DNA of 64,000 nucleotides, from contig JAZSMH010000047.1 in NCBI GenBank assembly GCA_045535785.1, positions 8,250 through 72,249 of the forward strand, written 5' to 3'. A program made the position numbers and the translations under genes. The first letter of the stretch is position 1, and each line of letters starts with the position of its first letter. Below the pieces are notes generated by a model. That model had not been told where the DNA came from, made no database searches, and was given only the letters and a program-made list of their open reading frames with translations. This DNA is from Clostridia bacterium. GTDB lineage: Bacteria; Bacillota; Clostridia; Christensenellales; DTU072. This document shows, one piece after another, positions 2,652 to 50,601 of this stretch.

Positions 2652-2652
2652 T

Positions 2653-3324
2653 ATGAAATTAACGATTTTAGGTAATTACGGGCCGTATCCAACTAACAAC
2701 GGCAACCTAAGCGGTTACGCAGTAGAAGACAACGACTTTTTAATGCTTCTCGATATGGGTAGCGGTACGCTTTCTGAGTTTTTAAGTAAGTTTGATATAA
2801 AGAAATTAGACGCGATTTTTATTTCGCACCTACATTTTGACCACACGTCCGACCTACTTCCTTTTAGGTATTTATTGGACGCAATCGGCAAAAAAATCAC
2901 CGTTTTCACCGAATTTAGCGACACCGAGTATTACAAAATCCTATTTAATCACCCATTAATTGACTGTATTAACGTCAGCTATAAAGATACGATAGAATAT
3001 AAAGGTAGAACGTTTTCTTTTTATCGTATGAAGCACGGCGCACCCACGCTAGGTATCAAAATAAAGGGTGAAAAAACCTTCTTCTATACGGGCGACACCG
3101 CGTATTTTGACGAGCTCAATACTATCATAAACGACGTTGATATAGTACTTGCAGATTGCGCCCAAAGTCCCGATTTTTGCGGTGGTCACATGACGGTAGA
3201 ACAGGGCATAAATCTAGCAAAAACCTTCAAAAATACAAAGTTCATTTTTACCCATTTAAGCCCCAATTATGAGATAAAAGAAATATTACCCAATAACGCG
3301 GAAATTGCTACGTTATGCGAGTAG
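2653..3324 (+). CDS. MBL-fold metallo-hydrolase (RNase Z-like)
   Basis: LDMGSG, ISHLHFDH (HxHxDH), YTGDT, THLS motifs. Confidence 0.85.
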   Translation: MKLTILGNYGPYPTNNGNLSGYAVEDNDFLMLLDMGSGTLSEFLSKFDIKKLDAIFISHLHFDHTSDLLPFRYLLDAIGKKITVFTEFSDTEYYKILFNHPLIDCINVSYKDTIEYKGRTFSFYRMKHGAPTLGIKIKGEKTFFYTGDTAYFDELNTIINDVDIVLADCAQSPDFCGGHMTVEQGINLAKTFKNTKFIFTHLSPNYEIKEILPNNAEIATLCE

Positions 3325-17399: not shown

Positions 17400-17475
17400 G
17401 GGAGCATAGCTCAGCTGGGAGAGCGCTTGCCTTACAAGCAAGATGTCATAGGTTCGAGTCCTATTGTTCCCACCA
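17400..17475 (+). tRNA. tRNA-Val (TAC), prophage integration site
   Basis: Cloverleaf, CT-TAC-AA anticodon loop, CCA end; 3' half duplicated at 25330. Confidence 0.95.
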
Positions 17476-17477
17476 AA
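17431..17477 (+). repeat. attL: 47-bp direct repeat
   Basis: CTTACAAGCAAGATGTCATAGGTTCGAGTCCTATTGTTCCCACCAAA, identical to 25330-25376. Confidence 0.95.
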
Positions 17478-25329: not shown

Positions 25330-25376
25330 CTTACAAGCAAGATGTCATAGGTTCGAGTCCTATTGTTCCCACCAAA
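25330..25376 (+). repeat. attR: duplicated 3' half of tRNA-Val
   Basis: Identical to 17431-17477. Confidence 0.95.
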
Positions 25377-25939: not shown

Positions 25940-26797
25940 ATGATAGACTTTTCAAAATACGAAAGAACTAACACATATTATGGTGGAACAGAACGTAAAT
26001 TTGGCGTAAATGTTGACGGCTTTGAATATATGATTAAATTTCAAAAGCAAACAAATTTCGGTGTAAAACGTCTTAATCACATCTCTGAGTACGTCGGCTC
26101 GCATATTTTTGAGTTGCTTGGCTTTGAAACGCAAGACACCTATCTTGGATTATACAATGGCGAGCAAGTTGTGGCGTGCAAAAATTTTATTAACGGCGAA
26201 ACGCAATTCGTTCCCTTTAATGATGTTGGCGAAAGTTCTCTTGAACAAGATAAGGAAACCTATCAATATTCTTATCAAGATATAATGCAAATGCTTCGAG
26301 ATAATGTAAAACTTACAAACGTTCAAGAAACGATAAGTATGTTTTGGGATATTTACGTTGTAGACGCATTAATTGGCAACTTTGATAGACACGGTGGGAA
26401 TTGGGGATTTTTAAAAAAGAACAACAAATATACACTTGCCCCCGTTTTTGACAATGGCTCATCTCTTTATTCTCAGCTTGTAGATGATGATATGATGAAA
26501 CAAATTATGCAGTCGGAAGAAATGACAAACGAAAGGATTTATAAATTCCCCACGTCGCAAGTTCAATTAAACGGCAAAAAGAGTTCTTATTTTGAAGTAA
26601 TCAATTCATTAGAGTTTAAGGAATGTAATGAAGCGGTTATAAAAATATGCGAAAGATATTCGCAAGAAAAAATCGACGAATTGATTGACGAAACCCCATT
26701 TTTAACCGATACTCATAAAGAATTTTACAAATATATATTAAGACAAAGATTTGAAAAGATATTGCTTCCCGCTTACAAGAAATTAACGGAGAAATAA
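25940..26797 (+). CDS. HipA/HipT-like Ser/Thr kinase (kinase core only)
   Basis: YGGTERK Gly loop, MIKF, SEY, DALIGNFDRHGGNWG, LAPVFDNGSSL. Confidence 0.85.
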   Translation: MIDFSKYERTNTYYGGTERKFGVNVDGFEYMIKFQKQTNFGVKRLNHISEYVGSHIFELLGFETQDTYLGLYNGEQVVACKNFINGETQFVPFNDVGESSLEQDKETYQYSYQDIMQMLRDNVKLTNVQETISMFWDIYVVDALIGNFDRHGGNWGFLKKNNKYTLAPVFDNGSSLYSQLVDDDMMKQIMQSEEMTNERIYKFPTSQVQLNGKKSSYFEVINSLEFKECNEAVIKICERYSQEKIDELIDETPFLTDTHKEFYKYILRQRFEKILLPAYKKLTEK

Positions 26798-26798
26798 A

Positions 26799-27578
26799 AT
26801 GAGAAAGTTAACCACAATGGGCTTTATCTGTCTTGAAGACGATTATAAGTTCATTTACAAAATTGCTAAAATTGAATATGAAGAATGGGAAGACGGTGCA
26901 TTTAACTATATATTCCGTCCATTTTATAACGTTATTGATATGTTGCCTGACCACTTATTTCAGGGCATTCCTGGACTTGATTTGAGTTTGAAAAGAGCCG
27001 TATATGAACGTAAGAATATAGTTCCCACTTTTATTGCGGAAAGAACACCAAGTGAACATCGTGAAGATTTGTGGGCGTTGATGGAAGAAAGCGGTATGCA
27101 AGCATTGAACCGCTTAGAATGGCTCATTAAAACAAACAAGAGATATTCAGGCGATAGATTTTTCGTTATGCCTTTTGACGGTAAAGATGCTGTTAGTTAT
27201 AAAGAGCGCTCTATGTACGATTTGGTAAGAAGGTCGGATAGTCTCAATAAAAAATTGCTTGAAATTATTTGCTTTGGCGATTATCTTTATGCTGATGATA
27301 TTATAATAGACGACAAATCTCGCCTTTATTATTACAGACTTTTAATGCCGATGTATATCCGTGAATTTGAGCGCAAAAAAAAGCTTAGAATGCGCGGAAT
27401 AGAAAAAGCGAAAGAACAAAACGTTTATAAAGGTCGTGGACAAATAAAAATTGACCCATTACTCTTTGATAGAGTTGCTAATGATTATTTGCACGGAAAA
27501 ATATCTGCCGACCAAGCGTCTTTGATATTAAAAATAAGTAGAGCAACATTTTTTAGAAGATTAAGGGAAAGAAAATAA
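26799..27578 (+). CDS. Fusion of a HipS/HipA-N-terminal-like domain with a truncated serine-recombinase tail and HTH
   Basis: N-half FIAERTPSEHREDL...GM...LEWL.KT...GD; C-half EFER...GIEKAK...YKGR...ISRATFFR. Confidence 0.6.
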   Translation: MRKLTTMGFICLEDDYKFIYKIAKIEYEEWEDGAFNYIFRPFYNVIDMLPDHLFQGIPGLDLSLKRAVYERKNIVPTFIAERTPSEHREDLWALMEESGMQALNRLEWLIKTNKRYSGDRFFVMPFDGKDAVSYKERSMYDLVRRSDSLNKKLLEIICFGDYLYADDIIIDDKSRLYYYRLLMPMYIREFERKKKLRMRGIEKAKEQNVYKGRGQIKIDPLLFDRVANDYLHGKISADQASLILKISRATFFRRLRERK

Positions 27579-27597: not shown

Positions 27598-28158
27598 ATG
27601 GGAAAGAAATTATCAGAAATGAGTTTGGAAGAACTTTGGTTGTTGTTTCCAATCTTTTTAGAAGAACATAAAGATTGTTGGCAAGAATGGTACTTTGAAG
27701 AAGAGCGTCTATTGAAAAACGTATTTTCTTCAAGTGAAAGAATCAGCCATATTGGCAGCACCGCTATTCCTTCTATTTGGGCAAAACCTATTGTAGATAT
27801 TCTCGTAGAAGTTCCAAAGGGGAGAAATTTGCTTGACTACGAAGCACAGTTAACAAACAACGGCTATATTTGTATGTCACAAAGCAAAGATAGAATGTCT
27901 TTTAACAAAGGATATACCGAGAATGGATTTTCTGAGCGAGTATTTCATTTACACTTGAGATATGTAGGGGATAACGACGAATTGTACTTCAGAGATTATC
28001 TTATCGAGTATATTGAGATAGCAAAAGAGTATGAAAAATTAAAGCTCTCGCTATGGAAAGAATACGAACATAATCGAGATGCTTATACGAAAGCAAAGAC
28101 CGAGTTTGTAAAGAAATATACAGAAAACGCGAAGTCGATTTATGGAAGTAGATATTGA
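27598..28158 (+). CDS. GrpB family (UPF0157) nucleotidyltransferase-fold protein
   Basis: ISHIGSTAIP..AKPIVDI, FHLHL, FRDYL, Y..LKL.L, YT.AKTEF. Confidence 0.88.
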   Translation: MGKKLSEMSLEELWLLFPIFLEEHKDCWQEWYFEEERLLKNVFSSSERISHIGSTAIPSIWAKPIVDILVEVPKGRNLLDYEAQLTNNGYICMSQSKDRMSFNKGYTENGFSERVFHLHLRYVGDNDELYFRDYLIEYIEIAKEYEKLKLSLWKEYEHNRDAYTKAKTEFVKKYTENAKSIYGSRY

Positions 28159-28296: not shown

Positions 28297-29490
28297 TCAA
28301 ACGCGTATTCTTGCTATTTTTCCGTAAGGCGGAGTAACGTTATCGTTATTTAATAGCCATAATACGGGTATACCCATGGTAAGTGTTTTTTTAGGGAAGG
28401 GCGCGTATCCATCGGTAAGAATAATTATACTCGCGGGTTTATTTTCCATATTTTTATTTACGTATTCGAATATGATCTGAAAGTTTGTACCACCACCGCC
28501 TTTTGGGTGGATAGTTTTTAATTCCCGTTCATTTTCAAAAGGTTTTGGTTCTACGATAGCGGCATCAAAAAAGCCTATCAACCCTTTTAGTTTTCCGTCA
28601 AATTGGTCGATTGCACCTTTTATTTCCGAATATGCCGCGGTAATCATACTGTCCGACATAGATCCCGACGTATCAATCATAAATAGTATATCTTTTACTA
28701 TTTCTTCTTTTTCATTAAAGTCTGGAAGGAAAAAGGAACTTTCGTTATAGCGCCGATCGGGCGGTGAAAAAGAATAATCCATCACTTCTTCCTGTACAAA
28801 ATCGTTAAGTACAGTTTTCCAATTAGTTTGTGGATTTTTTAGTTCTTCAAAAATTCGTTCGATAAAGTTAGGCAAAAGTCCGCGAGAATTATTTGGATCG
28901 CGCATAGCAATAGCAGTATGAGCATCTTCAATGCGCTTTTTCCATACGTTACGTAATTCAACGTTCTTTTCATGCGTGCCCCATCGCGAGTGATCGTCCC
29001 AATTTTGTCCGATATTTTTTTTAAGATAGCCGTTTGTTTTTATAAGCATTTCATAAATTTGTTCGGCAGTATACTCATATCCTTCCTTGCCGTCGGGTGT
29101 TAGATGCATAAGTGTGCCGTAGTTAGAAAGCGTGATACTTGCGTAATTCATATTGTTTTCTAACAAAATATTAGAATTTACCACAATATCGCAAGCAACG
29201 TTAAAAACAGTGTTATCACGATTACGTGACCGTAAACAATGTTGCAAAACTACGTGCATAATTTCATGTAACATAACGAAATCAAGTTCGCTACTAGTTA
29301 GACTTTCCAAAAAGTCAATGCCAAAAATTATACGTACACCGTCTGTGCAAGCGGTGTTTATTTTTTCATCTAGCGTATAAGTCATATGCATCAAAAGCAA
29401 TCCAAAAAATCCGTGATTGTTAAGTAAGCGCATACGCGAAAGCATAAGTTTTTTTATGCACTTTTTTATTCTTTCGTTAGTAACAACCAT
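28297..29490 (-). CDS. Metallopeptidase (HExxH) + vWA-like domain protein (DUF2201-like)
   Basis: TACTDG, MLHEIMH, NVACD, IDTSGSM MIDAS, GGGGTNF, LTDGY. Confidence 0.85.
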   Translation of the reverse strand: MVVTNERIKKCIKKLMLSRMRLLNNHGFFGLLLMHMTYTLDEKINTACTDGVRIIFGIDFLESLTSSELDFVMLHEIMHVVLQHCLRSRNRDNTVFNVACDIVVNSNILLENNMNYASITLSNYGTLMHLTPDGKEGYEYTAEQIYEMLIKTNGYLKKNIGQNWDDHSRWGTHEKNVELRNVWKKRIEDAHTAIAMRDPNNSRGLLPNFIERIFEELKNPQTNWKTVLNDFVQEEVMDYSFSPPDRRYNESSFFLPDFNEKEEIVKDILFMIDTSGSMSDSMITAAYSEIKGAIDQFDGKLKGLIGFFDAAIVEPKPFENERELKTIHPKGGGGTNFQIIFEYVNKNMENKPASIIILTDGYAPFPKKTLTMGIPVLWLLNNDNVTPPYGKIARIRV

Positions 29491-30591
29491 TTATAAATTT
29501 CCTTTTGTGCGTAACCATTTCAAAAATTCAGGAATTTGCATTAATTTTTCTACGTAGTTTTCATCTATGTGAATATAATCTTTCAAAAGCATTGTAGCAA
29601 AATCTGCAGGCATTTTTTCTGCATAGATTATAGAATTTTTGATACGCGTCATTTCATTTTTGTGTTCTCGCGCATACGCCACCATTGAAGACGTTAAAGC
29701 ATACAAACAATCGGTGTTTGTGGGTAAAGGCGGTGATTTTCCGTCAAAAATATCCGATACGTTGGGGATTTTGTTATAAAAGTGTGCCCACGTTTTGAAT
29801 TCAACCGCTACACCGCACCCGACAATGCCCGCAATAAGAAAAAACGTTTTTTCCAAATCGCTATTTACGTTATTAAGAACGTTGCTTACCATTTCCCAAG
29901 AGCGCGGGGTAGGAAAGGCGAGATCGTCAGAAGACGTATCTAGTCGTGACAAATAATTTGGTTTGAACGTCAAAAAACCTATTACATTATCGTTTATATT
30001 GTTTTTTTGCGCCCATTTTTTCCAAGACAAAAAGTTACTTTCTACTTCTATATGCAAAAGTCTATTAGCAAGTGCTTTCGGCATTTTGTAAGCGACGGAT
30101 TTGTCGGTTGTACGGTTGCCTGCGGCTATGACTATACAATTATCGGGCAGTTTGTGCTCGCCGATAACTCTATCAAGAGTTATTTGATAGGCGGCGGCCT
30201 GTATCGACTGTGGTGCTGCAGAAATTTCGTCAAGAAAAAGGATATTGACGACGTCTTTACTTTCGTCCATGTTGAAAATTTTTGGTTTTAACCATATAGC
30301 CAAGGTTTTATCGTTATTCGCAGTCGGTATTCCGCGAAGATCGATAGGATTGAAGAGTAAGAGCCGTACGTCGGTAACGAATACCTTTTTCGAGGTGTTT
30401 TCTTCAATATTTTTTGCAATTTGCCGTATCGCTTGCGACTTACCCACACCGGGTGCCCCCCAAAGCATTACGGACGGGATAATTTTTATAGGTAGGTGAT
30501 TATTAATGACGGTACAAAAAGCATTACTCAATTCTTCTACCGTTTTTTCTACGTCAAGAGAAGGAACGTTATTAAGTTTTAGTTCGTTCAT
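29491..30591 (-). CDS. MoxR-like AAA+ ATPase
   Basis: WGAPGVGKS, LFLDE, AAGNR, ALANRLLH, FPTPRSW. Confidence 0.88.
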   Translation of the reverse strand: MNELKLNNVPSLDVEKTVEELSNAFCTVINNHLPIKIIPSVMLWGAPGVGKSQAIRQIAKNIEENTSKKVFVTDVRLLLFNPIDLRGIPTANNDKTLAIWLKPKIFNMDESKDVVNILFLDEISAAPQSIQAAAYQITLDRVIGEHKLPDNCIVIAAGNRTTDKSVAYKMPKALANRLLHIEVESNFLSWKKWAQKNNINDNVIGFLTFKPNYLSRLDTSSDDLAFPTPRSWEMVSNVLNNVNSDLEKTFFLIAGIVGCGVAVEFKTWAHFYNKIPNVSDIFDGKSPPLPTNTDCLYALTSSMVAYAREHKNEMTRIKNSIIYAEKMPADFATMLLKDYIHIDENYVEKLMQIPEFLKWLRTKGNL

Positions 30592-33500
30592 TTTTTATCC
30601 ACCCCCAATTCACAGTCTAGTTTTTCAAGCTCTTTCGTTAATTCTTCAATTTTATCGGTGTAGTCTTCTTTGCGTGCAAGTTCTGTTTTTAGTGCGTCTT
30701 GTCTTGCGTAAGTATCGTTAAGATGTTTTTTCTTTTTTTCCAAAATTTCCGTTAATTTCCCTAAATAATTATCTATACGTGTAAGAATACCAAGTTGTGT
30801 ATCACCAAGTTCAACGTAATATTTTCCGTTTTTAATTAACCAAACAAAAGGCTTTTGCAAAGTCATATTGACGGGTGACAAAATATCAAACCCTTGATAG
30901 GAAGTAATCACGGTTTCTTTTGAATTAAGGACGTTATTTTTAAGCGTACCGAAGATTTCTTCGCGAAGCAGTTTTCTTTCGTCAGCGCTATATTCGCGAC
31001 GGTTATTTTTGTAGTATTCAATATCTAATTGACATTTTTTTATCACGTCTAGTTGGTTAGTGATGCTTGAAGGAAGCTCTAACAGTTGCTTTTGTATAAG
31101 CATGCGTTTTTCCACCGTTTTGCTCTGCAAAGACTGATATTTTGACAATTCGTTCGCCCTTTCCACCCTTTTTTTGATTAGTGGGTTGCCGATAGCAAGG
31201 GCTTTTACTTCAGCGTAGTTAAGGACGGTATTCTCTACGTCCGATCCGCTTCGTTCCGCTAAAGAACCCGAAAGTAATTTAGTAATAAATCTCTGTTTTG
31301 TTTCTAACAATTGCCAAGAATATGCGTCAAAACTTCCTTCGGTTACGTATCGATAGATATCGATTTTTGCATTATCGTTGCCTTGACGAAGGATACGTCC
31401 TTCCCGTTGCGTCATATCGGCAGGTCGCCAAGGTACGTCAAGGTGATGCATTGCAACCAGTTTATTTTGCACGTTCACCCCAAGCCCAAGTTTAAAAGTT
31501 GAGCCAATCAAAACGCGAACAATGCCGTTTCTCGTTTTTAAGAACAATTTTTCTCTCTCCGTTTCGGTATTTGCATCGTGTACGTAAGCGATTTTTTCTT
31601 TGGGTATCCCCATATTCACTAACAATTTTTTTACTTCATCATAGACGTTAAAACCGTTTTTTGGGACCGAAGTATCGCAAAAAATAAGTTGAACGCCACT
31701 TTTATAGTTTGTTTTTAAATAAATATCGAATACGTTTTCTACACATCTTGCCACTTTTGACTGATAACTAAATGGAATAGTATTGTCTATGAGTCTAATA
31801 TCTAGCGCTGCTTTTCTACCGTCCGTAGTGATCTTTAACATATTGTCTTTATGTCGCGGTACGTCACCACTTCTTATTCTTTCAGCACGAATAGATATTT
31901 CGTTAAGATACTTTTTTAAATCGTGACTTTTTGTTATGATAGCATCGCTATATCCATCGAATTTAGGTATATTAGCAGTTTCGTCTAGTTGGTGAAAATC
32001 TGCTATAGAAGATAACAGCGAAGTAAGCTCGGGCAGGTTGTGGAATTTTGAAAACCGCGTGACAAGACGATAGTTGCTCGTATCTACGTCAATTTCAAAT
32101 TCGGTTGCTTTTTCTGCGAACATACCTATCCAACTGTCAAAATTCTGCAAGTCTAGCATAGCGAGTTCATCGCTTTGTAAATATTGTTGCATAACGAAAA
32201 CGTCCGTTAAGGAATTAGTTATAGGCGTACCCGTTGCCATCACCACCCCACCACCGTTATTTTGTTCTTGAATAAGCCGTACTTTATTCAGCATATCGGT
32301 ACATTTTTTCGAGCCGTTTGCGCTTATACCGGGCATATTATCCATCTTTGTCTGCAAAGGTACGTTCTTGTAGTTATGCGCTTCGTCAATAAACAATCTC
32401 GTTATGCCGAGTTCGTCAAAATATATAGAGTCGTACACTTCGTCAAGTACCGTGGACAGATTACTAAGTGCTTTTTCCACCGCCGTCAATCTACTTTTTA
32501 GTTGATAAGTGGCCTTATTTTGTTTAGTAACTATTCTTTGTATAAACTCTTTATCTTTTTGTAGTTGTCTGATAAAGAATTGCCTTGATAGGGGAATAAG
32601 TTCAAAACAACTGTACGCCATTATGATACCGTCATAATCTTCGTCGCGTATCTTTTCAAGAACTTTCATTCTATTAGTCGGCGCAAAATTCTTTGGTTCT
32701 ACACAAAGTAATTTTGCATTAGGATACATGGTAAGAAAGATATTTTTCCATTGTTCTACGATATTATTAGGCACTACGTAGAGATTTTTTTGGGATAAAC
32801 CCATACGTTTTAGTTCCATACCGCTAGCAATCATAACGTACGTCTTGCCACTTCCTACTTCATGCGCAAGCAACGTATTCGGCGAAAAGAGTATCCTTGC
32901 CACTGCATTTTTTTGATAAGGATATAGCGTTACGTTAGAAGAAAGGGTAGGAAAAGTTAGGAATGAGCCGTCAAAAATACGTCTACGGACGCATCCAAAA
33001 TTGTTTTCATATATAATTTCTAGCCGTTCTTTTCGTTTTTCGTCTTTCCAAACCCATTTTTGAAATTCCGCAATCAATTTTTTTTGTTTTTCGAGTGCAA
33101 GGAAAGTTTCCGCTTGATTTAATATTTTTTTATGATATGCGTTGTCGGTGATTACGATATTTTTTTGGTTGAGCGTCTTTTCTAGAATTCGTAATGCGCC
33201 CATTCTCGAAGTACCGTACGTACTGTTTGACGTTACGGTGTTAGATAGAAAGTAATCCCGTTTTAGTGGAATTTCCCAAGTTCCCGTTATTTCATCGTGC
33301 AACGTACGTTGATGACTGCTATAACGGTCCGACGGTAAGTTAAAGAGATATAAAATAAAGTCGTCGATAACGTCTGTAGGCACCCAAGGTGAACCTAGCG
33401 TGATAAAAATATCTTTCGTTGCCACCGCGCTAGGCAAGACTTTTTTTATGGCTTTTAGATTGTCGCGAAAATACCCGTTGTAGATTTTGTTTGCTTCTTC

Positions 33501-34013
33501 CGCTTTCTTCCACTTTTGCATTAAATTTCCCGAGAGATATTCTTCCGCCGTTTCCCATCCCTTATAAAAACATTCACCCCAAGTTTGTGGATTTTGATAA
33601 ATAGCCCCTTTTAACGCGCAAATAACCGTTTTGCAATCTTCCCCTGTGATAGCAGATATATATTCTATATCCACGCACCCAATGGTAGATAGTGACGTAA
33701 CTAGTGCATCGGGAATACTATCTACGTGTACGTCTTGCGCGCGAATATCGGTAAAGAATGCGTTTTCATAATCTAACGGTAGATCCATAGAAGTAGCTTC
33801 AGATATGAGTTTTTCTAATTTTTGCTCTTTTTCTTTTTTCCGTTTCACCTTTATTTCTTTTTGTAAGATGACTTTTTTGTGCGTTTTTGAGAGGCAATCG
33901 GCAATTTTCGTCAATTCATCAATTGATAGACGATTGTTTTTTTCATTTATAATTAAATTTGCAATATGCTCCAATGCGTCAGCGAGATCGTCAATTAATA
34001 TGAATTCGTTCAT
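30588..34013 (-). CDS. SF2 (SNF2-like) helicase of the DarB / methylase-helicase type, without a methylase domain
   Basis: LYPYQ, AHEVGSGKT, IDEAH, ATGTP, LGVNVQ, QREGRILRQGN; no methyltransferase motifs seen. Confidence 0.85.
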   Translation of the reverse strand: MNEFILIDDLADALEHIANLIINEKNNRLSIDELTKIADCLSKTHKKVILQKEIKVKRKKEKEQKLEKLISEATSMDLPLDYENAFFTDIRAQDVHVDSIPDALVTSLSTIGCVDIEYISAITGEDCKTVICALKGAIYQNPQTWGECFYKGWETAEEYLSGNLMQKWKKAEEANKIYNGYFRDNLKAIKKVLPSAVATKDIFITLGSPWVPTDVIDDFILYLFNLPSDRYSSHQRTLHDEITGTWEIPLKRDYFLSNTVTSNSTYGTSRMGALRILEKTLNQKNIVITDNAYHKKILNQAETFLALEKQKKLIAEFQKWVWKDEKRKERLEIIYENNFGCVRRRIFDGSFLTFPTLSSNVTLYPYQKNAVARILFSPNTLLAHEVGSGKTYVMIASGMELKRMGLSQKNLYVVPNNIVEQWKNIFLTMYPNAKLLCVEPKNFAPTNRMKVLEKIRDEDYDGIIMAYSCFELIPLSRQFFIRQLQKDKEFIQRIVTKQNKATYQLKSRLTAVEKALSNLSTVLDEVYDSIYFDELGITRLFIDEAHNYKNVPLQTKMDNMPGISANGSKKCTDMLNKVRLIQEQNNGGGVVMATGTPITNSLTDVFVMQQYLQSDELAMLDLQNFDSWIGMFAEKATEFEIDVDTSNYRLVTRFSKFHNLPELTSLLSSIADFHQLDETANIPKFDGYSDAIITKSHDLKKYLNEISIRAERIRSGDVPRHKDNMLKITTDGRKAALDIRLIDNTIPFSYQSKVARCVENVFDIYLKTNYKSGVQLIFCDTSVPKNGFNVYDEVKKLLVNMGIPKEKIAYVHDANTETEREKLFLKTRNGIVRVLIGSTFKLGLGVNVQNKLVAMHHLDVPWRPADMTQREGRILRQGNDNAKIDIYRYVTEGSFDAYSWQLLETKQRFITKLLSGSLAERSGSDVENTVLNYAEVKALAIGNPLIKKRVERANELSKYQSLQSKTVEKRMLIQKQLLELPSSITNQLDVIKKCQLDIEYYKNNRREYSADERKLLREEIFGTLKNNVLNSKETVITSYQGFDILSPVNMTLQKPFVWLIKNGKYYVELGDTQLGILTRIDNYLGKLTEILEKKKKHLNDTYARQDALKTELARKEDYTDKIEELTKELEKLDCELGVDKK

Positions 34014-34213
34014 ATCTATAAAAAATCTACCTTTATTTTTTTCTTATTGTGAATGTAGTATAGCAAAGTCAATGGAATGTTTTTGGTACACGAAAAATTA
34101 TCTTAACGGTGGCGCATTAATATCTTGATAACTATCTCTTTTTATGGTACAATTTATATGGATTTAACGAAATTATCAACGTAGAAAATAAAAGTTTTTT
34201 TGGGAGACAGAAT

Positions 34214-42857: not shown

Positions 42858-43838
42858 ATGGAAAATTTAGAAAAAGTAAAAGCGTTTAGCGAAGCGGTTG
42901 CAAGGATAGAAACCGAATTAAAGAAAGACATCGTAGGTAAGAGCGAAGTTCTTGAAGATATCATTATCGCGGTTATTGCCGGCGGTAACGTGCTACTAGA
43001 AGGCGTACCCGGAGTAGGTAAGACCAGACTAGTTAGATCGTTAGGTAGAACTTTACGTTTACCGTTTTCTAGAATACAATTTACCCCCGACCTTATGCCC
43101 GCCGACATCACGGGTACTAACGTTATCGAGAAAGACGAACAAGGTAGACTTAACACTATCTTTAAGAAAGGCCCCATTTTTGCTAACCTAGTACTCGCAG
43201 ACGAAATCAACCGTGCTACCCCTAAGGCACAATCGGCTATGCTAGAAGTTATGCAAGAGCATAAAGTTACCATTTCTAACCAAACCCACGTTATTCCCGA
43301 GCCCTTCTTCGTGCTCGCTACCGAGAATCCCATTGAGCAAGACGGTACCTATCCTTTGCCCGAAGCACAAATGGACAGATTCTTATTCAAACTCATTATG
43401 ACCTTCCCCACCAACGAAGAATTGGTTGATATCGTAAAAATGACGCAAATTACGATGGACGAAAATTCCGAAGCAGTCGTTGACGGCGCTACCATTCTAG
43501 AAATGAGAGAATTAGCAAAAACCGTTCCCGTTATCGACGAAGTATTGCTATATGCAGTTAATCTAGTATCTTCCACCCACCCCGAACTAGGCGGTGAAGT
43601 TGCGAAGAAGTATATTAAGTACGGTGCATCCCCTAGAGCAGCACAAGCATTAGTAAGCTCGGCTAAAGTTAGAGCACTTATAAAAGGCAACTACAACGTA
43701 AGTTACGAAGATATCGATGCGCTCGCTCACGCAGTATTAAGACACAGAATTAAGATAAACTACAACGCAATCAACGACGGTCTAAAAATAGACGACGTTA
43801 TCGACCTATTAATAAAAGCAAACCGCAAAGCAAAATAA
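42858..43838 (+). CDS. MoxR family AAA+ ATPase
   Basis: LLEGVPGVGKT, RIQFTPDLMPADITG, LADEINRATPK, ATENPIE, GASPRA. Confidence 0.95.
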   Translation: MENLEKVKAFSEAVARIETELKKDIVGKSEVLEDIIIAVIAGGNVLLEGVPGVGKTRLVRSLGRTLRLPFSRIQFTPDLMPADITGTNVIEKDEQGRLNTIFKKGPIFANLVLADEINRATPKAQSAMLEVMQEHKVTISNQTHVIPEPFFVLATENPIEQDGTYPLPEAQMDRFLFKLIMTFPTNEELVDIVKMTQITMDENSEAVVDGATILEMRELAKTVPVIDEVLLYAVNLVSSTHPELGGEVAKKYIKYGASPRAAQALVSSAKVRALIKGNYNVSYEDIDALAHAVLRHRIKINYNAINDGLKIDDVIDLLIKANRKAK

Positions 43839-43855
43839 GAAGTAGAAGTTAAACA

Positions 43856-44740
43856 ATGGCATTACCCGTAATCAGCGAAGAATTTTTGCAACAAATGGAA
43901 ACGTTGCAACTGCTCGTTAAGAACAACGTAGCAGGTAATTTTGGAGGCAACCGTAAGACGAAGAAGTACGGTTCTTCTTGCGAGTTCGCTGATTATAGAG
44001 ATTACGTAGCAGGCGACGACATTACGAAAATCGATTGGAACGTCTACGCAAGGTTTGATAAATTATATCAAAAACTTTACCTTGACGAAAGACAAATGCA
44101 CACCAAGATTTATATCGATGCTAGCCGTTCTATGGCGTACGGCAGTGCGGAAAAAGCACGTCAAGCGTTAAAAATGGCAGCGGTTATTGCATATCTATCT
44201 ATTTGCGAAATGGATAGAGTTTCTATCTTCGTTATTAAAGAAAAAGAAACTACCGCGCTCATTAACGGCATTATCGGTAAAGAAGCATTCACTAGCAAGA
44301 TAGGCTTACTTAACACCATAGATTTTAGCGGTGACAGTTACATTAGCGATGCTATCGTACCCACTCCCGTAGGCTACGGTGACGGAATTTCGGTAATTAT
44401 TAGCGACTTCTTGACGGAAAATAACTACGAAGACGCTATTAACCACCTTGCCGACAAAAAAAGAGACGTTATTTGTTTGCAAATTCTTTCTAATGAAGAA
44501 CTTAATCCTTTAGCGCGTGGCAAAGTTCACTTCTTCGACTCGGAGAATTCTTCTAGATTCTATCGTAAGAATATTGATAGAGAAGTAGCCAAAGCTTACG
44601 CAAAAGCGTTAGAATACGTTATGGGAAGAATTAAGAATTGTTGCGCTTCTCGCGATGCTACTTACCTTATGATCCCTGCGGAAAAGAACATAGGCGAAGT
44701 GGTCTTTAACGAATTTTCAAAAATGGGGGTACTGAAATAA
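43856..44740 (+). CDS. DUF58 family protein
   Basis: GSSCEFADYRDYVAGDDITKIDWNVYAR, IDASRSM, ISDFL. Confidence 0.92.
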   Translation: MALPVISEEFLQQMETLQLLVKNNVAGNFGGNRKTKKYGSSCEFADYRDYVAGDDITKIDWNVYARFDKLYQKLYLDERQMHTKIYIDASRSMAYGSAEKARQALKMAAVIAYLSICEMDRVSIFVIKEKETTALINGIIGKEAFTSKIGLLNTIDFSGDSYISDAIVPTPVGYGDGISVIISDFLTENNYEDAINHLADKKRDVICLQILSNEELNPLARGKVHFFDSENSSRFYRKNIDREVAKAYAKALEYVMGRIKNCCASRDATYLMIPAEKNIGEVVFNEFSKMGVLK

Positions 44741-46581
44741 TGAATTTTACGTATCCACTTGGACTACTAGGTCTTATAGGTATTCCCATTCTTATCTTGA
44801 TTTATATAATCAAGAATAAATACACGGAACAAACCGTTTCTTCCACCTACATTTGGACTTTGAGTGAAAAATTCTTAAAGCGTAGGAATCCTATAAGCAA
44901 AATAGCGGGTATCATTAGCCTAATTTTGCAAATTCTTGCAGTAATTTTAGTTTCTATTGCTATCGCGCACCCCGTTTTCGTAATACCCGATGCGGCAAAA
45001 GAATATTGCTTTATTCTAGACGGCTCTGGCAGTATGAACGTTCTTTACGACGGCGACACGGGCTTTAATAAAGGCGTAGACGAGATAGAAGAAGTGATAG
45101 ATAATTCACAAGACGGCAGTATGTATACTTTGCTTTTTGCAAATAACGGTTGCGAAGCGGTTTACGAGCGTATCACTAACAAAGAGCAAGCTATCAAACT
45201 TCTTAACGAATTAAAACCGGGTTTTGGTACAACCGACTTTACCGATAGCATTAAGCGCGCTCAAGAATATTTTGACGAGAATCCTTCGGTTGTTACCTAT
45301 CTAGTTACCGATGGTAATTACGAAGTAGACAATATAAAATTGCTTAATCTAGGTAAAGATTTTAACAATTATTCGTTAAGTAACTTTACTGTAGATTTTG
45401 ACGGAGAAAAAGTCACCGTAGCAGGGGATATTACTTCCTACTATCAAGACGCTACCTTACCTATCAGTCTTTACGTTGACGGACAAAAGGTAGATTTAGA
45501 CGAAAGCACCGTAGAAGTGAAAAAAGGCGAGAAAAAGACGGTTATTTATACCCACGTTACTAGCGAATTTGCTTCCGCTAAGGTAGCAATAGACGTAAAG
45601 GACGACTTAATGGAAGATAATGTTGTAGAAATTTTCGACATCAGTAGCGAGAACGGATTTTCTACCCTTATCGTAAGCGATACGCCGTTTTTCCTTGAAT
45701 CTATGTTAAAAGCAACCGGCAATGCAAAAATAAAGGTGGTAGGCACCGAAGAATATAAGAACTATACCGGATTTAGTTTGTACGTATTCCATTCTTTCGT
45801 TCCCGAGTCGCTACCTAGAGACGGCGCAATATGGTTCGTCAACGCGCGCCAAAGCGTATCGGGTACGGGATTTAGCGTACAAGGTGTTGTGGATTTAGAA
45901 AAACCCGAAGAACTCACCCTTTCAAAATCTACCGCCACTATGGTAAAACAACTAATAAAGGGTATGAAAGGCGAAGGTATCTACGTATCTTCTTACGTAA
46001 AATGCGGACTTTACGATAACTTCACCACCCTTTTATCATACAAAGGCAACCCCGTAGTTTTCACGGGAGTTAATAGTTACGGCAATAGAGAAGTCGTGTT
46101 TGCATTCGATTTACACGATACCAACTTCCCTCTAATGCTCGATTTCGTTGCACTTTGTAACAACCTTATTGATTATACCTTCCCCGACGTAGTAGAGAGC
46201 ACTTCTTACTACGCAGGCGACACTCTTAACGTCAACGTTATCACTAATTGTGATAGCATTAGAGTGGATACGCCGTCAGGGGAGCACGCATATCTTGATA
46301 CGTCCAATGCTATTGCGGAATACCTTCTCAAAGAAGTAGGCACGTACAAGATTACCGTAATGGTAGGGGATGCTAAGTCGGAGTTTTCCATTAGTAGCCA
46401 ACTACCGATAGAAGAGAGAGAAACTAACCTAGCTACGCAAGGAGTAAAACTCGTAGGACAAGCAAGTAGCGATGGTTTTGACGGCATATTCGACGAATTG
46501 TGGGTATGGATGCTTGTTTTAGGTGCAGTATTTATTGCTGATTGGATGGTGTATTGTTATGAAAAATATCAACTTCGATAA
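44740..46581 (+). CDS. BatA-domain + vWA protein
   Basis: F.YPLGLLGL..IPILILIY BatA N-terminus, LDGSGSM MIDAS, VTDG, C-terminal TM. Confidence 0.85.
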   Translation: MNFTYPLGLLGLIGIPILILIYIIKNKYTEQTVSSTYIWTLSEKFLKRRNPISKIAGIISLILQILAVILVSIAIAHPVFVIPDAAKEYCFILDGSGSMNVLYDGDTGFNKGVDEIEEVIDNSQDGSMYTLLFANNGCEAVYERITNKEQAIKLLNELKPGFGTTDFTDSIKRAQEYFDENPSVVTYLVTDGNYEVDNIKLLNLGKDFNNYSLSNFTVDFDGEKVTVAGDITSYYQDATLPISLYVDGQKVDLDESTVEVKKGEKKTVIYTHVTSEFASAKVAIDVKDDLMEDNVVEIFDISSENGFSTLIVSDTPFFLESMLKATGNAKIKVVGTEEYKNYTGFSLYVFHSFVPESLPRDGAIWFVNARQSVSGTGFSVQGVVDLEKPEELTLSKSTATMVKQLIKGMKGEGIYVSSYVKCGLYDNFTTLLSYKGNPVVFTGVNSYGNREVVFAFDLHDTNFPLMLDFVALCNNLIDYTFPDVVESTSYYAGDTLNVNVITNCDSIRVDTPSGEHAYLDTSNAIAEYLLKEVGTYKITVMVGDAKSEFSISSQLPIEERETNLATQGVKLVGQASSDGFDGIFDELWVWMLVLGAVFIADWMVYCYEKYQLR

Positions 46582-49180
46582 TCCATATTTATTGCTCATA
46601 ACACTACCTTTGATAGCGGTAATTACGGTACCGTTTATTATCGCCATACGCAAAGAAAACCGCGATAAGTCGGTTATTGCTTCTTTTATCATGCACCTTC
46701 TTATAGTTTGCTTTGCTACTTTAATTGTTGCGGGCACGCAGATGACCTTCGTTATGACGGAGACGGAAATATACGTACTTGCAGACGTTTCTTACTCATC
46801 TCACGATAATCTCGACAAAATCGACCAATATATCGATAACGTAGACGAAAATAAACCCGAAGGCGCATCTTTGGGCGTAGTTTGCTTTGGCAAAGACTAC
46901 GAATTGTTTACCGAAATGGGCGCGGAGAGAAGTAGCGTAACGACTTCTACCGTTGACGACAGTGCAACCGATATTATATCCGCACTTGAATACACCGCTA
47001 CGCTATTTAGAGAAGACGTTATTAAGCGCATAGTACTTATCACCGATGGTAAGGCCACCGATAACGAAAGCACTTCTGCTCTTATCCGCACCGTTGCTAA
47101 TTTGTCAGAAAGCGGTATCTATATCGATGCAATGTATCTCGATAACAATATAAAAGAAGACGCCAAAGAAGTACAAATTAACGCGGTAGAATTTAACGAC
47201 TTTACCTACCTAAATCACGAAACCACCGCGGACGTACTTATCCAAAGTTCTTTTGATACCGAAGCAATTATCGCATTATACAAAGGCGAAAATAAGTATT
47301 ACCAAAAGGCGGTTAACCTAAATAAAGGCTACAACGTAGTTAACTTTACGCTCGATACCTTCATTGCGGGTGAATTCGATTATACGTTAGAAATAACCGT
47401 TACGGGTGACGAATCTTCATATAACAATACTTATAGATTTACCCAAAGCGTATCCGCTACGCTAGAAGTTTTACTTATAACCGAGAATCAAGCGGACTAC
47501 GAAGCGGCAAAAGAATTATACGGCAATTCCGCCAATATCACCGCATTTGTAAACAAACCCAACGTACCTTACTCAATAGAAGATATCTGTAAGTACGACG
47601 AAATTATGCTCGTCAACTGCGACGTGCGTAAACTCAACAATTATAGCTCGTTTGTTTCTAACGTTGACACCGCGGTATCACTCTTTGGTAAGAGTTTAGT
47701 TACCATAGGCGACAACAAGATTCAAAATAGAGAAGAAGGCATTTTGCTAGAATTATCCGACATGCTACCCGTTAAATTCGGTAACGACGATAGAGAGCCA
47801 AAACTCTACGGTATAGTATTCGACGCGTCGCGCAGTATGCAATTTGCTTCTCACTACATTATGGCAAAAGAAGCGTTAAGACAAATTCTTAACTTACTTA
47901 ACGACGAAGATTTTGTATCTGTAGTAGCATTCTCAGGCGATATCACCGTTGCTAGCCCTGCTCAAAAAGCATCGAATAGAGAGCAAATAATAAGCGATAT
48001 CGAGTCACTAGAGCCCACTCAAGGTACCTTCTTAGGTAAAGGCCTTGACGAAATGTACAAGGTAATGGATACCATGCAAGGCTTTAGCAAAAAAGAAGTT
48101 ATGGTTATTAGCGACGGTATGTCGTACACTCTAGAAGAAGACGATCCTATCAAACTTGCCGAAGCAATGTATAAGAGCGGTATCAACGTATCTGCAATCA
48201 ATATTGCCACGATAAACGGTGAGCCTACGCTAAAAAGCATGGCAGAAGCAGGTAGGGGCGAATATTACTTTATTAAGGACAATACCGACGTATCGGACTT
48301 TATCTTAGGCGACGTAGCTAACGACGTAACCGATAGCGTTGTCGAAAAAGACACTGCAGTTTATATAGAAAGAATTAACGACGACGTCCTTAACGGCGTA
48401 GAGAAGTTCGCTAGAATTTCGGGCTACTACTACGGCAAGGCGAAAGCTAGTGCCAAGACCGTACTTAGCGTTGATTATGAAGTTAACGACACCACCACCG
48501 TAAAAGCACCTTTATATTCCTATTGGAATTATGGTAATGGCAAAGTATCATGCTATACGGGCGTTATTAGCGGTACGTGGATAAGGAATTGGACGGGTAC
48601 GGAAACTAAATTCTTAAAGAATATCGTCTCCGTCAATACCCCTATGGAAAAGGTAAGTTCACCCTACGTTGTAAATATCGAAGCAGACGGAAATTACGCT
48701 AATATCCAAGTTACTGCACCCAAACTCAACGTTTCGGCAACCGCAAGTATTGAGATTACTTCTCCGTCGGGAAAGAAAGAAACCAAAGAACTAGCATTCG
48801 ATTCTACTAGTTATTATCATAAGATAGAGACTGACGAAATAGGTAAATACGTCGTTAACGTAAGTTATTCTTACGAAGGTGCAACGTATAACGCAACGAG
48901 TATATTCAATACGTCATACGAGCTAGAATACGACGAATTCGCTACCTACAGTGCGTCTACTTTATATAAGGTTATGCAAAATTACGGTCAAGTAAGCGAA
49001 AACGGCGAGCTAACTATCGTTAACGACGACAAAGAGATAGCAACGTACGTAATTAAGTTCACCGTACCGTTAGCAATAATTATTGCCGTATTGTTTATAG
49101 TTGACGTAATTATTCGCAAACTAAAATGGAACGATATAAAGGGCTTCTTCAAGAAGAACTCAAAAGGAGGAGAAAAATGA
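46559..49180 (+). CDS. Membrane protein with two vWA domains
   Basis: ADVSYSS...LITDG and FDASRSM...GTFLG...ISDG; start set at ATG 46559. Confidence 0.85.
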   Translation: MKNINFDNPYLLLITLPLIAVITVPFIIAIRKENRDKSVIASFIMHLLIVCFATLIVAGTQMTFVMTETEIYVLADVSYSSHDNLDKIDQYIDNVDENKPEGASLGVVCFGKDYELFTEMGAERSSVTTSTVDDSATDIISALEYTATLFREDVIKRIVLITDGKATDNESTSALIRTVANLSESGIYIDAMYLDNNIKEDAKEVQINAVEFNDFTYLNHETTADVLIQSSFDTEAIIALYKGENKYYQKAVNLNKGYNVVNFTLDTFIAGEFDYTLEITVTGDESSYNNTYRFTQSVSATLEVLLITENQADYEAAKELYGNSANITAFVNKPNVPYSIEDICKYDEIMLVNCDVRKLNNYSSFVSNVDTAVSLFGKSLVTIGDNKIQNREEGILLELSDMLPVKFGNDDREPKLYGIVFDASRSMQFASHYIMAKEALRQILNLLNDEDFVSVVAFSGDITVASPAQKASNREQIISDIESLEPTQGTFLGKGLDEMYKVMDTMQGFSKKEVMVISDGMSYTLEEDDPIKLAEAMYKSGINVSAINIATINGEPTLKSMAEAGRGEYYFIKDNTDVSDFILGDVANDVTDSVVEKDTAVYIERINDDVLNGVEKFARISGYYYGKAKASAKTVLSVDYEVNDTTTVKAPLYSYWNYGNGKVSCYTGVISGTWIRNWTGTETKFLKNIVSVNTPMEKVSSPYVVNIEADGNYANIQVTAPKLNVSATASIEITSPSGKKETKELAFDSTSYYHKIETDEIGKYVVNVSYSYEGATYNATSIFNTSYELEYDEFATYSASTLYKVMQNYGQVSENGELTIVNDDKEIATYVIKFTVPLAIIIAVLFIVDVIIRKLKWNDIKGFFKKNSKGGEK

Positions 49181-50601
49181 AAAAATTAGTTACAGTAATA
49201 ATGATAATTCTCGTCCTTTTCGGGTGTGTCGCTTGCGTAGAATACAACGATGCCGTAAATAAGCCCGGACAAGGTAATCAAAGCGGCAACAACAATAATA
49301 ATAATAACAATAACAACAACGATAACCAAGATACGCCTAACGAGCAAGAAGGCGAACTTTCTACCGTTACGTTGATGTATAACGGAGAATTCTACCAACC
49401 TTCTATCGTAATCAAAGCACAATGGGACAATGGTTTTTCGGTAAGAACGGCAGAATTTGACGATAACGGAGAAGCAAAGATTTACGGACTTGACGGAGAA
49501 TACGACGTAACGCTATCCGCTTTACCCAAAGGCTACAGCTATAATCCTAATATCTATTATACGTCTAACGAAAGACGTCATATCGAGATAGAACTATTCA
49601 AAGTTACGGAGACGGTAGGCACGGGCAAAGGTCTATATCACAGTGAAGGTGTTATCGTAATCGACCAGACGGCGGTTTATAGAGCGGAATTAGAAAGTGC
49701 CAGAGACGTAGTTTATTACGAATTTGCACCGCAAAAAAGCGGTACCTACACCATAGAATCTTGGGTAGACACCACGGCGGAATTAGTTAATCCCATGGCG
49801 GACGTCTACGAAGGCTCGATTGCTTACAAGAATTTCTCATACACCATCAACACGGGTGGCAAAGAGGGTACGTTTAGTAAGAACTTCGTCTACGACGTAG
49901 AGATAGCGGACGAAATGATTAGCGAGAATGGTAGCGCGGTATTTACCTTCGGAATAAAAGCAACGGTAAAAACCGACAAGTTCCCCGTATACGTAGACTT
50001 TGCTATCAAACTTGACGGAATGTTCGACCTTGACCATACGATTAGTCAATATATCGTTCCGCAAGAGAATTTCGTTAGAGCGGAAGAAGTAAGCGGCACG
50101 CTAAGTACTCCCGCAAGAAAAGTAGGCAGTAATTACTTATTTGACCAAAGTATGTATAAGCTCAACCCCGCAGACGGTTACTACTATCTATACGATGCAG
50201 AAACCGACACCTACGTGCAAAAACTCTATGCGTTCATAAGCAGTCCTTGCTTCTTTATCGACAAAGCGTTTACAGAGATAGAGTACGAAGGCAATAAGAA
50301 TCTTACCGTCAACAAAGGTAAGGACAACTACAAAATATTCATTGAAGGTGCCGCAGCAACTATAGCTGCAGGGTATGACAACGTACCCACGGCTCTACAA
50401 AATCAAGAAGGTTATGCCCAATACACTAATTCCGACGGCGTGTATCCCGTAACCGAAGAATTAAAGATCTTCTTGCAAGCGTATAGCACGTCACAATGGC
50501 TCTTCAACGATGGTAACGGCTTTGTAGAAAGCTTCACCACACCGAGATACTACTGCGACGAAGATAGCCAATGGCTCTTCGGTTGCGCCCTATACAAATA
50601 G
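49177..50601 (+). CDS. Hypothetical lipoprotein with Asn-rich linker
   Basis: AGGAGG RBS, ATGA overlap, LFGC lipobox, poly-Asn (AAC/AAT) stretch. Confidence 0.75.
   Translation: MKKLVTVIMIILVLFGCVACVEYNDAVNKPGQGNQSGNNNNNNNNNNNDNQDTPNEQEGELSTVTLMYNGEFYQPSIVIKAQWDNGFSVRTAEFDDNGEAKIYGLDGEYDVTLSALPKGYSYNPNIYYTSNERRHIEIELFKVTETVGTGKGLYHSEGVIVIDQTAVYRAELESARDVVYYEFAPQKSGTYTIESWVDTTAELVNPMADVYEGSIAYKNFSYTINTGGKEGTFSKNFVYDVEIADEMISENGSAVFTFGIKATVKTDKFPVYVDFAIKLDGMFDLDHTISQYIVPQENFVRAEEVSGTLSTPARKVGSNYLFDQSMYKLNPADGYYYLYDAETDTYVQKLYAFISSPCFFIDKAFTEIEYEGNKNLTVNKGKDNYKIFIEGAAATIAAGYDNVPTALQNQEGYAQYTNSDGVYPVTEELKIFLQAYSTSQWLFNDGNGFVESFTTPRYYCDEDSQWLFGCALYK

Follow-up and report, generated by a model that had tools for sequence, protein, structure and literature searches.

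Results

Three coupled genes form a conserved operon

We analysed a 64,000-nt stretch of DNA (the window) from a Clostridia bacterium (GCA_045535785.1, contig JAZSMH010000047.1, positions 8,250–72,249, forward strand) and, within it, a trio of adjacent open reading frames (ORFs) on the minus strand that encode a helicase, a MoxR-like AAA+ ATPase, and a zincin metallopeptidase fused to a vWA domain. According to the ORF listing, the helicase gene (P0001) extends from 30588 to 34013 and encodes 1141 amino acids, the ATPase gene (P0002) from 29491 to 30591 (366 amino acids), and the zincin-vWA gene (P0003) from 28297 to 29490 (397 amino acids). The TGA stop of the helicase gene and the ATG start of the ATPase gene share an ATGA overlap at 30588–30591 (GGGGGTGGATAAAAAATGAACG), and at the second junction (AAAGGAAATTTATAAATGGTT, core AAAGGAAATTTATAAATGG) the TAA of the ATPase gene directly abuts the ATG of the zincin-vWA gene. 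Both coupled starts are preceded by purine-rich Shine-Dalgarno-like sites, GGGGGTGGA upstream of the ATPase start and AAAGGAAA ahead of the zincin-vWA start. An earlier note on this stretch (the original prediction) had reported this coupling of the three minus-strand genes, and all of its coordinates were correct. The trio has a GC content of 0.365–0.388, compared to 0.395 for the genome. Together, the three genes are a single operon encoding a fixed three-protein set.

Relatives were collected by scanning one genome per GTDB species, using the ATPase to find close relatives. Such a relative was present in 439 species genomes, and the 80 best loci drawn from these were surveyed. By tblastn, all 80 loci had the trio in identical order and orientation, with abutting or overlapping genes, wherever the contig reached. 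Clustering of the ORFs recovered the helicase, ATPase, and zincin-vWA families in 79, 79, and 78 loci, respectively, while the next most common family was found in 34. The flanking genes were otherwise nearly all different between loci, and the 80-locus survey revealed no further conserved gene belonging to the core of the trio. Three additional metagenome contexts also contained the trio, each in a different neighborhood. The original prediction would have been refuted if the helicase were a mere remnant beside an unrelated gene pair; the neighborhood survey shows instead that the three genes are conserved together. For gene pairs with 78–98% nucleotide identity, the median ratios of nonsynonymous to synonymous substitution rates (dN/dS, NG86) were 0.065 for the helicase, 0.066 for the ATPase, and 0.093 for the zincin-vWA protein, and the HExxH, metal ion-dependent adhesion site (MIDAS), Walker A/B, and helicase motifs were all invariant in the relatives. 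The trio is thus kept under purifying selection.

The hosts belong to the Oscillospiraceae, Acutalibacteraceae, Lachnospiraceae, and Christensenellaceae, and further comprise an Erysipelotrichaceae genome (Absicoccus) and one bin labelled Muribaculaceae. ATPase identities of about 70% across different host families indicate horizontal transfer. Within the genus, 4 of 25 genomes carried the trio at about 50% identity, and hence as different alleles; all 16 genomes representing 16 other families of the order lacked it, and a class-wide sample of 399 genomes contained it in 8 cases (about 2%). A clean empty site could not be demonstrated in the genus because divergence between its species is too high, with a flanking reductase that is only 35–53% identical and itself patchy. 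We conclude that the trio is a co-inherited unit that moves horizontally between gut and rumen Clostridia. Decayed copies were observed as well. At one locus (L054, 9462–10001) only the last approximately 170 helicase residues are left behind a different 475-amino acid ORF, and at another (L021, 6676–10001) the helicase is split into parts of 1012 and 147 amino acids.

The helicase is a DarB-type motor without a methylase

Domain scans with Pfam assigned SNF2-rel_dom, ResIII, and Helicase_C to the helicase. Residues 94–1138 matched PHROG 10089 ('DarB-like antirestriction') with E = 1.4e-246, corresponding to profile positions 2104–3210 of 4647. The best tblastn matches among plasmids were about 38% identical over 89% of the helicase length, and the top one falls into the C-terminal 54% or so of a 1972-amino acid 'helicase-related protein' of a Clostridium perfringens plasmid. 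Genes similar to the latter also occur on plasmids of Enterococcus, Streptococcus suis, and Clostridium botulinum, and these plasmid proteins of roughly 1970 amino acids are of the methylase-helicase type. No methylase domain was detected by domain scans in P0001 or in the neighboring ORFs. Comparison with 57 relatives revealed a variable N-terminus (residues 1–70) that is not conserved, a conserved pre-helicase region (residues 76–350), the conserved motif I GSGKT (G387–T391), DEAH box (543–546), and motif VI QREGR (869–873), and a C-terminal region (950–1141) that is conserved in large part. Precomputed annotations of relatives assign the pre-helicase part to PF28553 (WH_1) and PF28554 (DUF8437), both of which are newer than the Pfam copy used for the window scans. 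Judged from its sequence, the protein is a standalone SWI2/SNF2-type helicase/translocase of the DarB clade that lacks a methylase. This agrees with the family and the missing methylase given in the original prediction, as well as with its description of a distinct N-terminus; its statement that the helicase corresponds to the C-terminal two-thirds of DarB-like proteins has to be corrected, as 54% is nearer to one half.

The ATPase and the zincin-vWA protein match a known phage protein pair

The ATPase passed the AAA_3 (MoxR) cut-off weakly, with 34.7 bits against a cut-off of 27, and matched PHROG 1297 over its full length (residues 39–361, E = 2.2e-91). Walker A (GAPGVGKS, residues 45–52) and Walker B (D121–E122) are invariant in relatives. 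The C-terminal domain of about 180 amino acids is without assigned function, and AAA_lid_2 was not detected in the domain scan. With an AAA_3 core, both Walker motifs, and a translationally coupled vWA partner, P0002 is a member, albeit a divergent one, of the MoxR family. More than 6000 homologues were found, the top ones being 66–75% identical and originating nearly all from gut or rumen metagenomes.

The third protein consists of DUF2201_N, a zincin domain with the motif HEIMH, followed by DUF2201/VWA_2, and likewise matched a phage family over its full length (PHROG 1314, residues 5–396, E = 1.2e-81). The HExxH residues H75, E76, and H79 and the complete MIDAS (D273, T274, S275, S277, and D360; D-T-S-G-S) are invariant in 60 relatives. 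An AlphaFold2 (AF2) model of the entire protein had a predicted local distance difference test (pLDDT) score of 80.6; Foldseek confirmed the vWA fold and, with the full-length model, returned vWA matches only. When the zincin domain was used alone (AF2 residues 1–262, pLDDT 81), no significant neighbor was obtained in the PDB, with best E-values of 0.6–1.1. Among the non-significant matches were selecase, PprI, BlaR1, and SPRTN (6mdx), with an aligned core of 70–130 residues. Sequence searches of solved structures yielded no informative relative. RefSeq phage records label members of PHROG 1314 as 'HNH endonuclease' (e.g., NC_023719.1 gp576 and NC_023581.1). No HNH domain is detectable in these proteins, which are zincin-vWA proteins instead, and the label is therefore probably a propagated mis-annotation.

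Mobile elements integrate into the helicase gene at codon 866

In three unrelated loci, the helicase gene is interrupted at the same point by an insert, located at 4547–7300 in L038 (Absicoccus), at 3580–9124 in L062 (Eubacterium sp.), and at 6107–8793 in L101, a contig of IMG/VR. The position corresponds to codon D866 (PAD/MTQREGR, just before motif VI), which is intact in the window (31416–31418, minus strand). The right junctions read …GTCCGCAAA..ATG.CCGACT/GATATG…, the slash marking the break, with the helicase resuming at D866–M867. L062 retains the left half up to …CCGGCAGAT; the bases with which its insert begins imitate the helicase sequence that follows the break, a pattern to be expected if the attP arms are similar to attB. 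In each case, the gene abutting the junction encodes a homologous large serine recombinase (Resolvase, Recombinase, Zn_ribbon_recom, and DUF4368). The recombinases of L038 and L101 are 73% identical over their full length, and that of L062 shares N- and C-terminal segments only (65–89%). The L062 insert of about 5.5 kb carries a gene for a Tet(M/O/W)-like ribosomal protection protein together with the rearranged recombinase. The insertions at codon 866 in three loci indicate that a family of mobile elements uses the most conserved stretch of the helicase gene for integration. This is consistent with a gene whose inactivation benefits such elements; alternatively, the elements may simply use a conserved sequence as attB.

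A probable WYL-type operator precedes the trio in many relatives

The promoter of the operon was assigned to the intergenic region at 34014–34213 (minus strand), divergent from an aldo-keto reductase gene, with a TTGACT hexamer at 34072–34067. Since only weak consensus promoters were listed, we infer this assignment. In relatives, an 18-bp palindrome, TGYACC-N6-GGTRCA, is located approximately 40–110 nt upstream of the helicase ORF. Across loci L014–L093, and allowing up to 2 mismatches in the 12 specified positions, 27 of 58 regions upstream of the helicase contained it, compared to 2.6 ± 1.5 (maximum 7) in random 260-nt windows from the same loci. The palindrome also occurs in intergenic DNA preceding WYL, AAA_lid_6, AAA-M41, and LRR_5 genes, and its presence at all of these operons and at the trio suggests one probable WYL regulon. 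TGYACC-N6-GGTRCA is therefore a putative, and probable, operator of a WYL regulator. From these sequence data, expression of the trio in many relatives looks to be governed by a WYL-WCX regulator acting through this site.

The window itself contains no WYL gene. A degenerate copy of the operator (GTGTACCAAAAACATTCCA, 34073–34090, minus strand), matching 9 of the 12 positions, is situated directly before TTGACT, and its left half-site (TGTACCAAAAA, 34090–34080, minus strand) is intact. A WYL-WCX regulator that is 47–48% identical to the trio-linked WYL cluster is encoded on another contig of the genome (C54, 12121–13179, minus strand). Just upstream of this gene lies that for an FtsH-like AAA-Peptidase_M41 protein (C54, 13253–14548, minus strand), and the island (C54, 11358–16352) also holds a 264-amino acid gene without assigned function and an LRR_5 gene divergent from the WYL gene. 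The AAA-M41, WYL-WCX, and LRR_5 families are those that flank the trio in other genomes. The promoter of the C54 WYL gene carries ATGTACCAAAAATGTCGCA, and the 11-mer TGTACCAAAAA is common to the WYL and helicase promoters. Six copies of this 11-mer occur in 2.16 Mb; besides the two in the helicase and WYL promoters, one coincides with a tRNA 3′ end, and the others, which do not look like promoter sites, fall within or between unrelated ORFs. None of the four perfect operator copies in the genome is at the trio or at the WYL gene, so that the half-site alone links both promoters. Action of the C54 WYL regulator on the trio in trans is plausible on the basis of these sequence matches.

Relatives in phages and plasmids differ from the trio

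No copy of the trio with more than 50% identity was present among 50,697 records of phages and 72,556 of plasmids; the best phage match was 33% identical, and the plasmid matches ranged from 27 to 39%. Close copies were present in 2 of 2.9 million IMG/VR contigs, one of which has the helicase cut by an inserted element. The pair of ATPase and zincin-vWA protein without this helicase was found in 643 phage records, mostly N4-like Schitoviridae. In Acinetobacter phage Presley, the replication module comprises the ATPase, a small ORF, an 'N4-like (gp25)' zincin-vWA protein, and then a DNA helicase. The pair also occurs in phage G and cyanophage S-TIM5, among toxin-antitoxin genes on plasmid pSYSA of Synechocystis, and beside type IV secretion system (T4SS) genes on conjugative plasmids of Burkholderiales. 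In five jumbo-phage-like contigs of IMG/VR (L103–L107; 77–190 kb, four of them 143–190 kb), the order is reversed, with the zincin-vWA gene preceding the ATPase gene; here ATPase identity is 43–45%, and no DarB-type helicase is located nearby. Overall, the pair proteins of phages and plasmids are 25–45% identical to those of the window. Iyer et al. 2021 (PMC7824862) reported the pair in group 2.2 jumbo phages and guessed at a role in virion assembly; we found no further literature description of the N4-like gp25/vWA/AAA pair.

Compared to known systems, the trio displays both common and distinct features. A dyad of a methylase and a SWI2/SNF2 helicase, DarB, was described in polyvalent proteins of phages, plasmids, and conjugative elements, for which metallopeptidases form the main hub (Iyer et al. 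2017, PMC5512222). The trio helicase belongs to the same family as the DarB dyad of P1, shares with it a pre-helicase region of about 260 amino acids and the C-terminal region, and is about 38% identical to plasmid dyads. However, it lacks the adenine methylase and the polyvalent architecture, and it is encoded on the chromosome in a three-gene operon outside any virion or transfer context. The phage MoxR and metallopeptidase-vWA pair (PHROG 1297/1314) is matched over the full length by both trio proteins, although at an identity of only 27–45%; the phage pairs are without a DarB-type helicase and the trio is chromosomal and not part of a phage genome. In the vWA-MoxR ternary conflict systems of Kaur, Burroughs, Iyer, and Aravind 2020 (PMC7159879), the third components are others, a metallopeptidase in the effector position is rare, and the hosts are mostly multicellular bacteria. 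The trio resembles these systems in combining MoxR and a peptidase-fused vWA protein as effector with a third component in an accessory, conflict-type setting. It differs in that its third gene encodes an SNF2 translocase and not VMAP, iSTAND, or FtsH, as judged without the authors' own profiles, and in that its hosts are gut Clostridia. With DrmD of DISARM, BrxH of BREX, DpdE of Dpd, HmaA of Hma, and ZorD of Zorya, the helicase has in common a generic SNF2 core, with local matches to Helicase_C or the N-lobe only, but it scores far below the respective cut-offs (52 versus 610 bits for DrmD; 36 versus 500 for DpdE), and no partner genes of these five systems are located near the trio in the window.

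Identity with a named defence system was rejected, as scans with PADLOC, NCBIfam, and Pfam gave generic SNF2 and AAA matches only; the zincin-vWA protein had no PADLOC match at all. The trio is not described in PMC5512222, PMC7159879, or PMC7824862, nor in the papers that our searches found on DUF2201, on MoxR, vWA, and SNF2 proteins in phage defence, or on WYL regulators with such proteins. The term 'undescribed' used in the original prediction is thus in line with the results from PADLOC, NCBIfam, and the literature. The building blocks and the theme, that is MoxR-vWA with a peptidase effector and SNF2 motors in conflict, are known, and the fixed combination is undescribed in the resources searched.

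The trio is located in variable, defence-type islands

In other genomes, genes for HTH-WYL-WCX regulators lie near the trio in 34 loci, an AAA + AAA_lid_6 ATPase of about 677 amino acids in 20, and a 281-amino acid protein without assigned function in 17. The AAA_lid_6 gene is directly upstream of the helicase in four loci (L019, L026, L051, and L078); in the last three, the 281-amino acid gene follows the zincin-vWA gene, so that both bracket the trio, while the contig of L019 ends earlier. Neither protein has a match in PADLOC, and they may represent a second undescribed system or an extension of the trio. An FtsH-like AAA-Peptidase_M41 protein matching IetA of PADLOC is encoded near the trio in 8 loci and serine recombinases in 7. 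GmrSD-type pairs, LRR_5 proteins, DUF2779/Cas4-like proteins, and a 5′-nucleotidase are further recurrent neighbors, and DarT/NADAR and Fic occur in one context. These neighbors place the trio in variable islands with many genes of the restriction, toxin, and defence types.

In the window, the trio is adjacent to a gene for GrpB (27598–28158) and to a HipA_C kinase cassette (25940–27578). On the other side, the aldo-keto reductase gene is encoded on the opposite strand and starts 200 bp from the helicase gene. A tRNA cluster is located at 17.1–17.5 kb, and a perfect 47-bp direct repeat of the tRNA-Val 3′ end (attL/attR, 17431–17477 and 25330–25376) bounds an element with an integrase and Rep_1. 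As this repeat delimits the integrase/Rep_1 prophage, the trio is not part of it, and neither are GrpB and the HipA cassette; no further copy of a tRNA-derived att repeat that could bound the trio was found beyond 25.4 kb. The toxin-antitoxin-like neighbor and the tRNA genes of the original prediction hence correspond to the HipA_C cassette and the tRNA cluster. Its placement of the trio 'in the island' holds insofar as the trio occupies accessory, defence-island-like DNA in many genomes, but not with respect to the att-bounded prophage. The window also encodes a canonical MoxR protein (42858–43838, plus strand; AAA_3 202.6 bits, with AAA_lid_2); a DUF58 gene and then three large ORFs lie downstream. 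This region (42858–50601, plus strand) looks like a MoxR-DUF58-vWA operon of the Bat/aerotolerance type and is unrelated to the trio.

Discussion

Our data suggest that the trio may be an accessory conflict system, most likely one that defends against phages or other invading DNA, a reading to which we assign a probability of roughly one half. It is based on the conservation of the three genes, the selection acting on them, their accessory spread, the island context, the WYL operator, the absence of close copies from phages and plasmids, and the disruption by mobile elements. In such a system, the DarB-clade SNF2 motor would bind to and translocate on double-stranded DNA without a methylase partner, the MIDAS of the vWA domain would grip an acidic residue of a client protein, and the MoxR-like AAA+ ring would remodel the vWA-client complex at the expense of ATP. 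The fused zincin would then cut either a DNA-bound protein of the invader that the motor runs into, or the variable N-terminal segment of the helicase itself, thereby switching the motor on. In the genome of the window, the WYL regulator encoded on C54 would act in trans on the operon. Control of the motor by the AAA/peptidase module, as put forward in the original prediction, is possible as one among several such wirings.

Several observations weigh against a role in defence. The trio proteins include neither a nuclease nor any other obvious effector of killing. The nearest relatives of all three are proteins of phages and plasmids that are thought to serve the invader, namely the DarB-type dyads on the one hand and the Presley/N4-like (gp25) and jumbo-phage pairs of MoxR and peptidase-vWA on the other. 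For the modelled zincin domain, Foldseek gave no significant structural neighbor (best E-value of 0.6), so that any protease type given to it is tentative. In the window, no WYL gene lies next to the trio, and the operator copy is degenerate (9 of 12 positions). Finally, WYL regulators also control DNA-damage responses, and the WYL linkage is therefore not specific for defence.

The ancestry of all three proteins would also be accounted for if the trio were a module of the invader, either a leftover or cargo of an integrative element, that protects incoming DNA or disarms restriction as DarB or ArdC do. The helicase is of the DarB-like family known from polyvalent proteins of plasmids and phages (PMC5512222), and the AAA and zincin-vWA pair is present in Schitoviridae, phage G, cyanophages, jumbo-phage contigs, and T4SS-adjacent plasmids; serine recombinases are found near the trio in the 7 loci mentioned above, and in the window the trio occupies a tRNA-adjacent variable region. 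Nevertheless, we regard this role as unlikely. The trio lacks the methylase by which the DarB dyad is defined, copies with more than 50% identity were not found in the collections of phages and plasmids and hardly at all in IMG/VR, and most flanks contain no conjugation or virion genes. Moreover, the trio has its own WYL-type operator, common to chromosomal island genes, lies outside the att-bounded prophage in the window, and is itself a target into which mobile elements insert and which they break. An anti-defence function, which the original prediction had left as an option, is disfavored by this absence from phages and plasmids, the lack of a methylase, the link to a WYL regulator and operator, and the mobile-element disruption. 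Another possible role is that of an accessory machine for stress response or DNA repair, a bacterial analogue in which helicase, AAA+ unfoldase, and a protease of the SPRTN/Wss1 type would clear protein roadblocks or DNA-protein crosslinks upon induction by a DriD/PafBC-like WYL activator sensing single-stranded DNA. The combination of a motor, an AAA+ protein, and a zincin mirrors eukaryotic crosslink repair. Both the connection with a WYL-WCX regulator and its operator and the appearance of SPRTN (6mdx) and the damage-response protease PprI among the weak Foldseek matches would be in accordance with this function. These matches are, however, not significant (E of about 1, core of 70–130 residues), and presence in about 2% of the genomes of the class, horizontal transfer, and variable island sites are unlike housekeeping repair. 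The neighbors, moreover, are mostly genes of restriction, toxin, or defence types; we accordingly hold a repair machine to be less probable still.

That the helicase has nothing to do with the AAA/vWA pair, and that their adjacency arose by chance or by a meaningless operon fusion, might be surmised from the occurrence of the pair without this helicase in phages, on pSYSA, and on Burkholderiales plasmids. Such an origin is contradicted by the survey, where the arrangement of the genes (order, strand, and overlaps) stays the same in about 80 loci although their flanks are unrelated, and by purifying selection on all three genes, and we consider it very improbable. Returning to defence against invading DNA, a narrower form of it would be a new type of immunity that hits proteins of the invader on the DNA rather than the DNA: the DarB-derived translocase, free of a methylase, would track incoming or replicating foreign DNA until it meets a tightly or covalently bound protein, the MIDAS would capture this protein, MoxR would unfold it, and the zincin would degrade it, while the insertions at codon 866 would represent a counter-measure. 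Candidate targets would be a phage terminal protein, a conjugative relaxase, a rolling-circle Rep protein, or a protein protecting the invading genome. We regard this specific scheme as even more doubtful than the repair machine.

Should the trio prove to act in defence, it would constitute a new family, represented by no fewer than 439 species-level genomes among gut and rumen Firmicutes, whose immune repertoire is poorly explored, and would show how a host can take over an anti-restriction motor of phages and plasmids. It would also provide the first functional handle on the MoxR and peptidase-vWA pair that is widespread in N4-like Schitoviridae, jumbo phages, and plasmids. The common WYL operator would define a small regulon that comprises the trio, the FtsH-like AAA-M41 protein, and the AAA_lid_6 ATPase. 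Integration at codon 866 by elements that carry tetracycline resistance ties the mobility of a resistance gene to the loss of a candidate immune gene.

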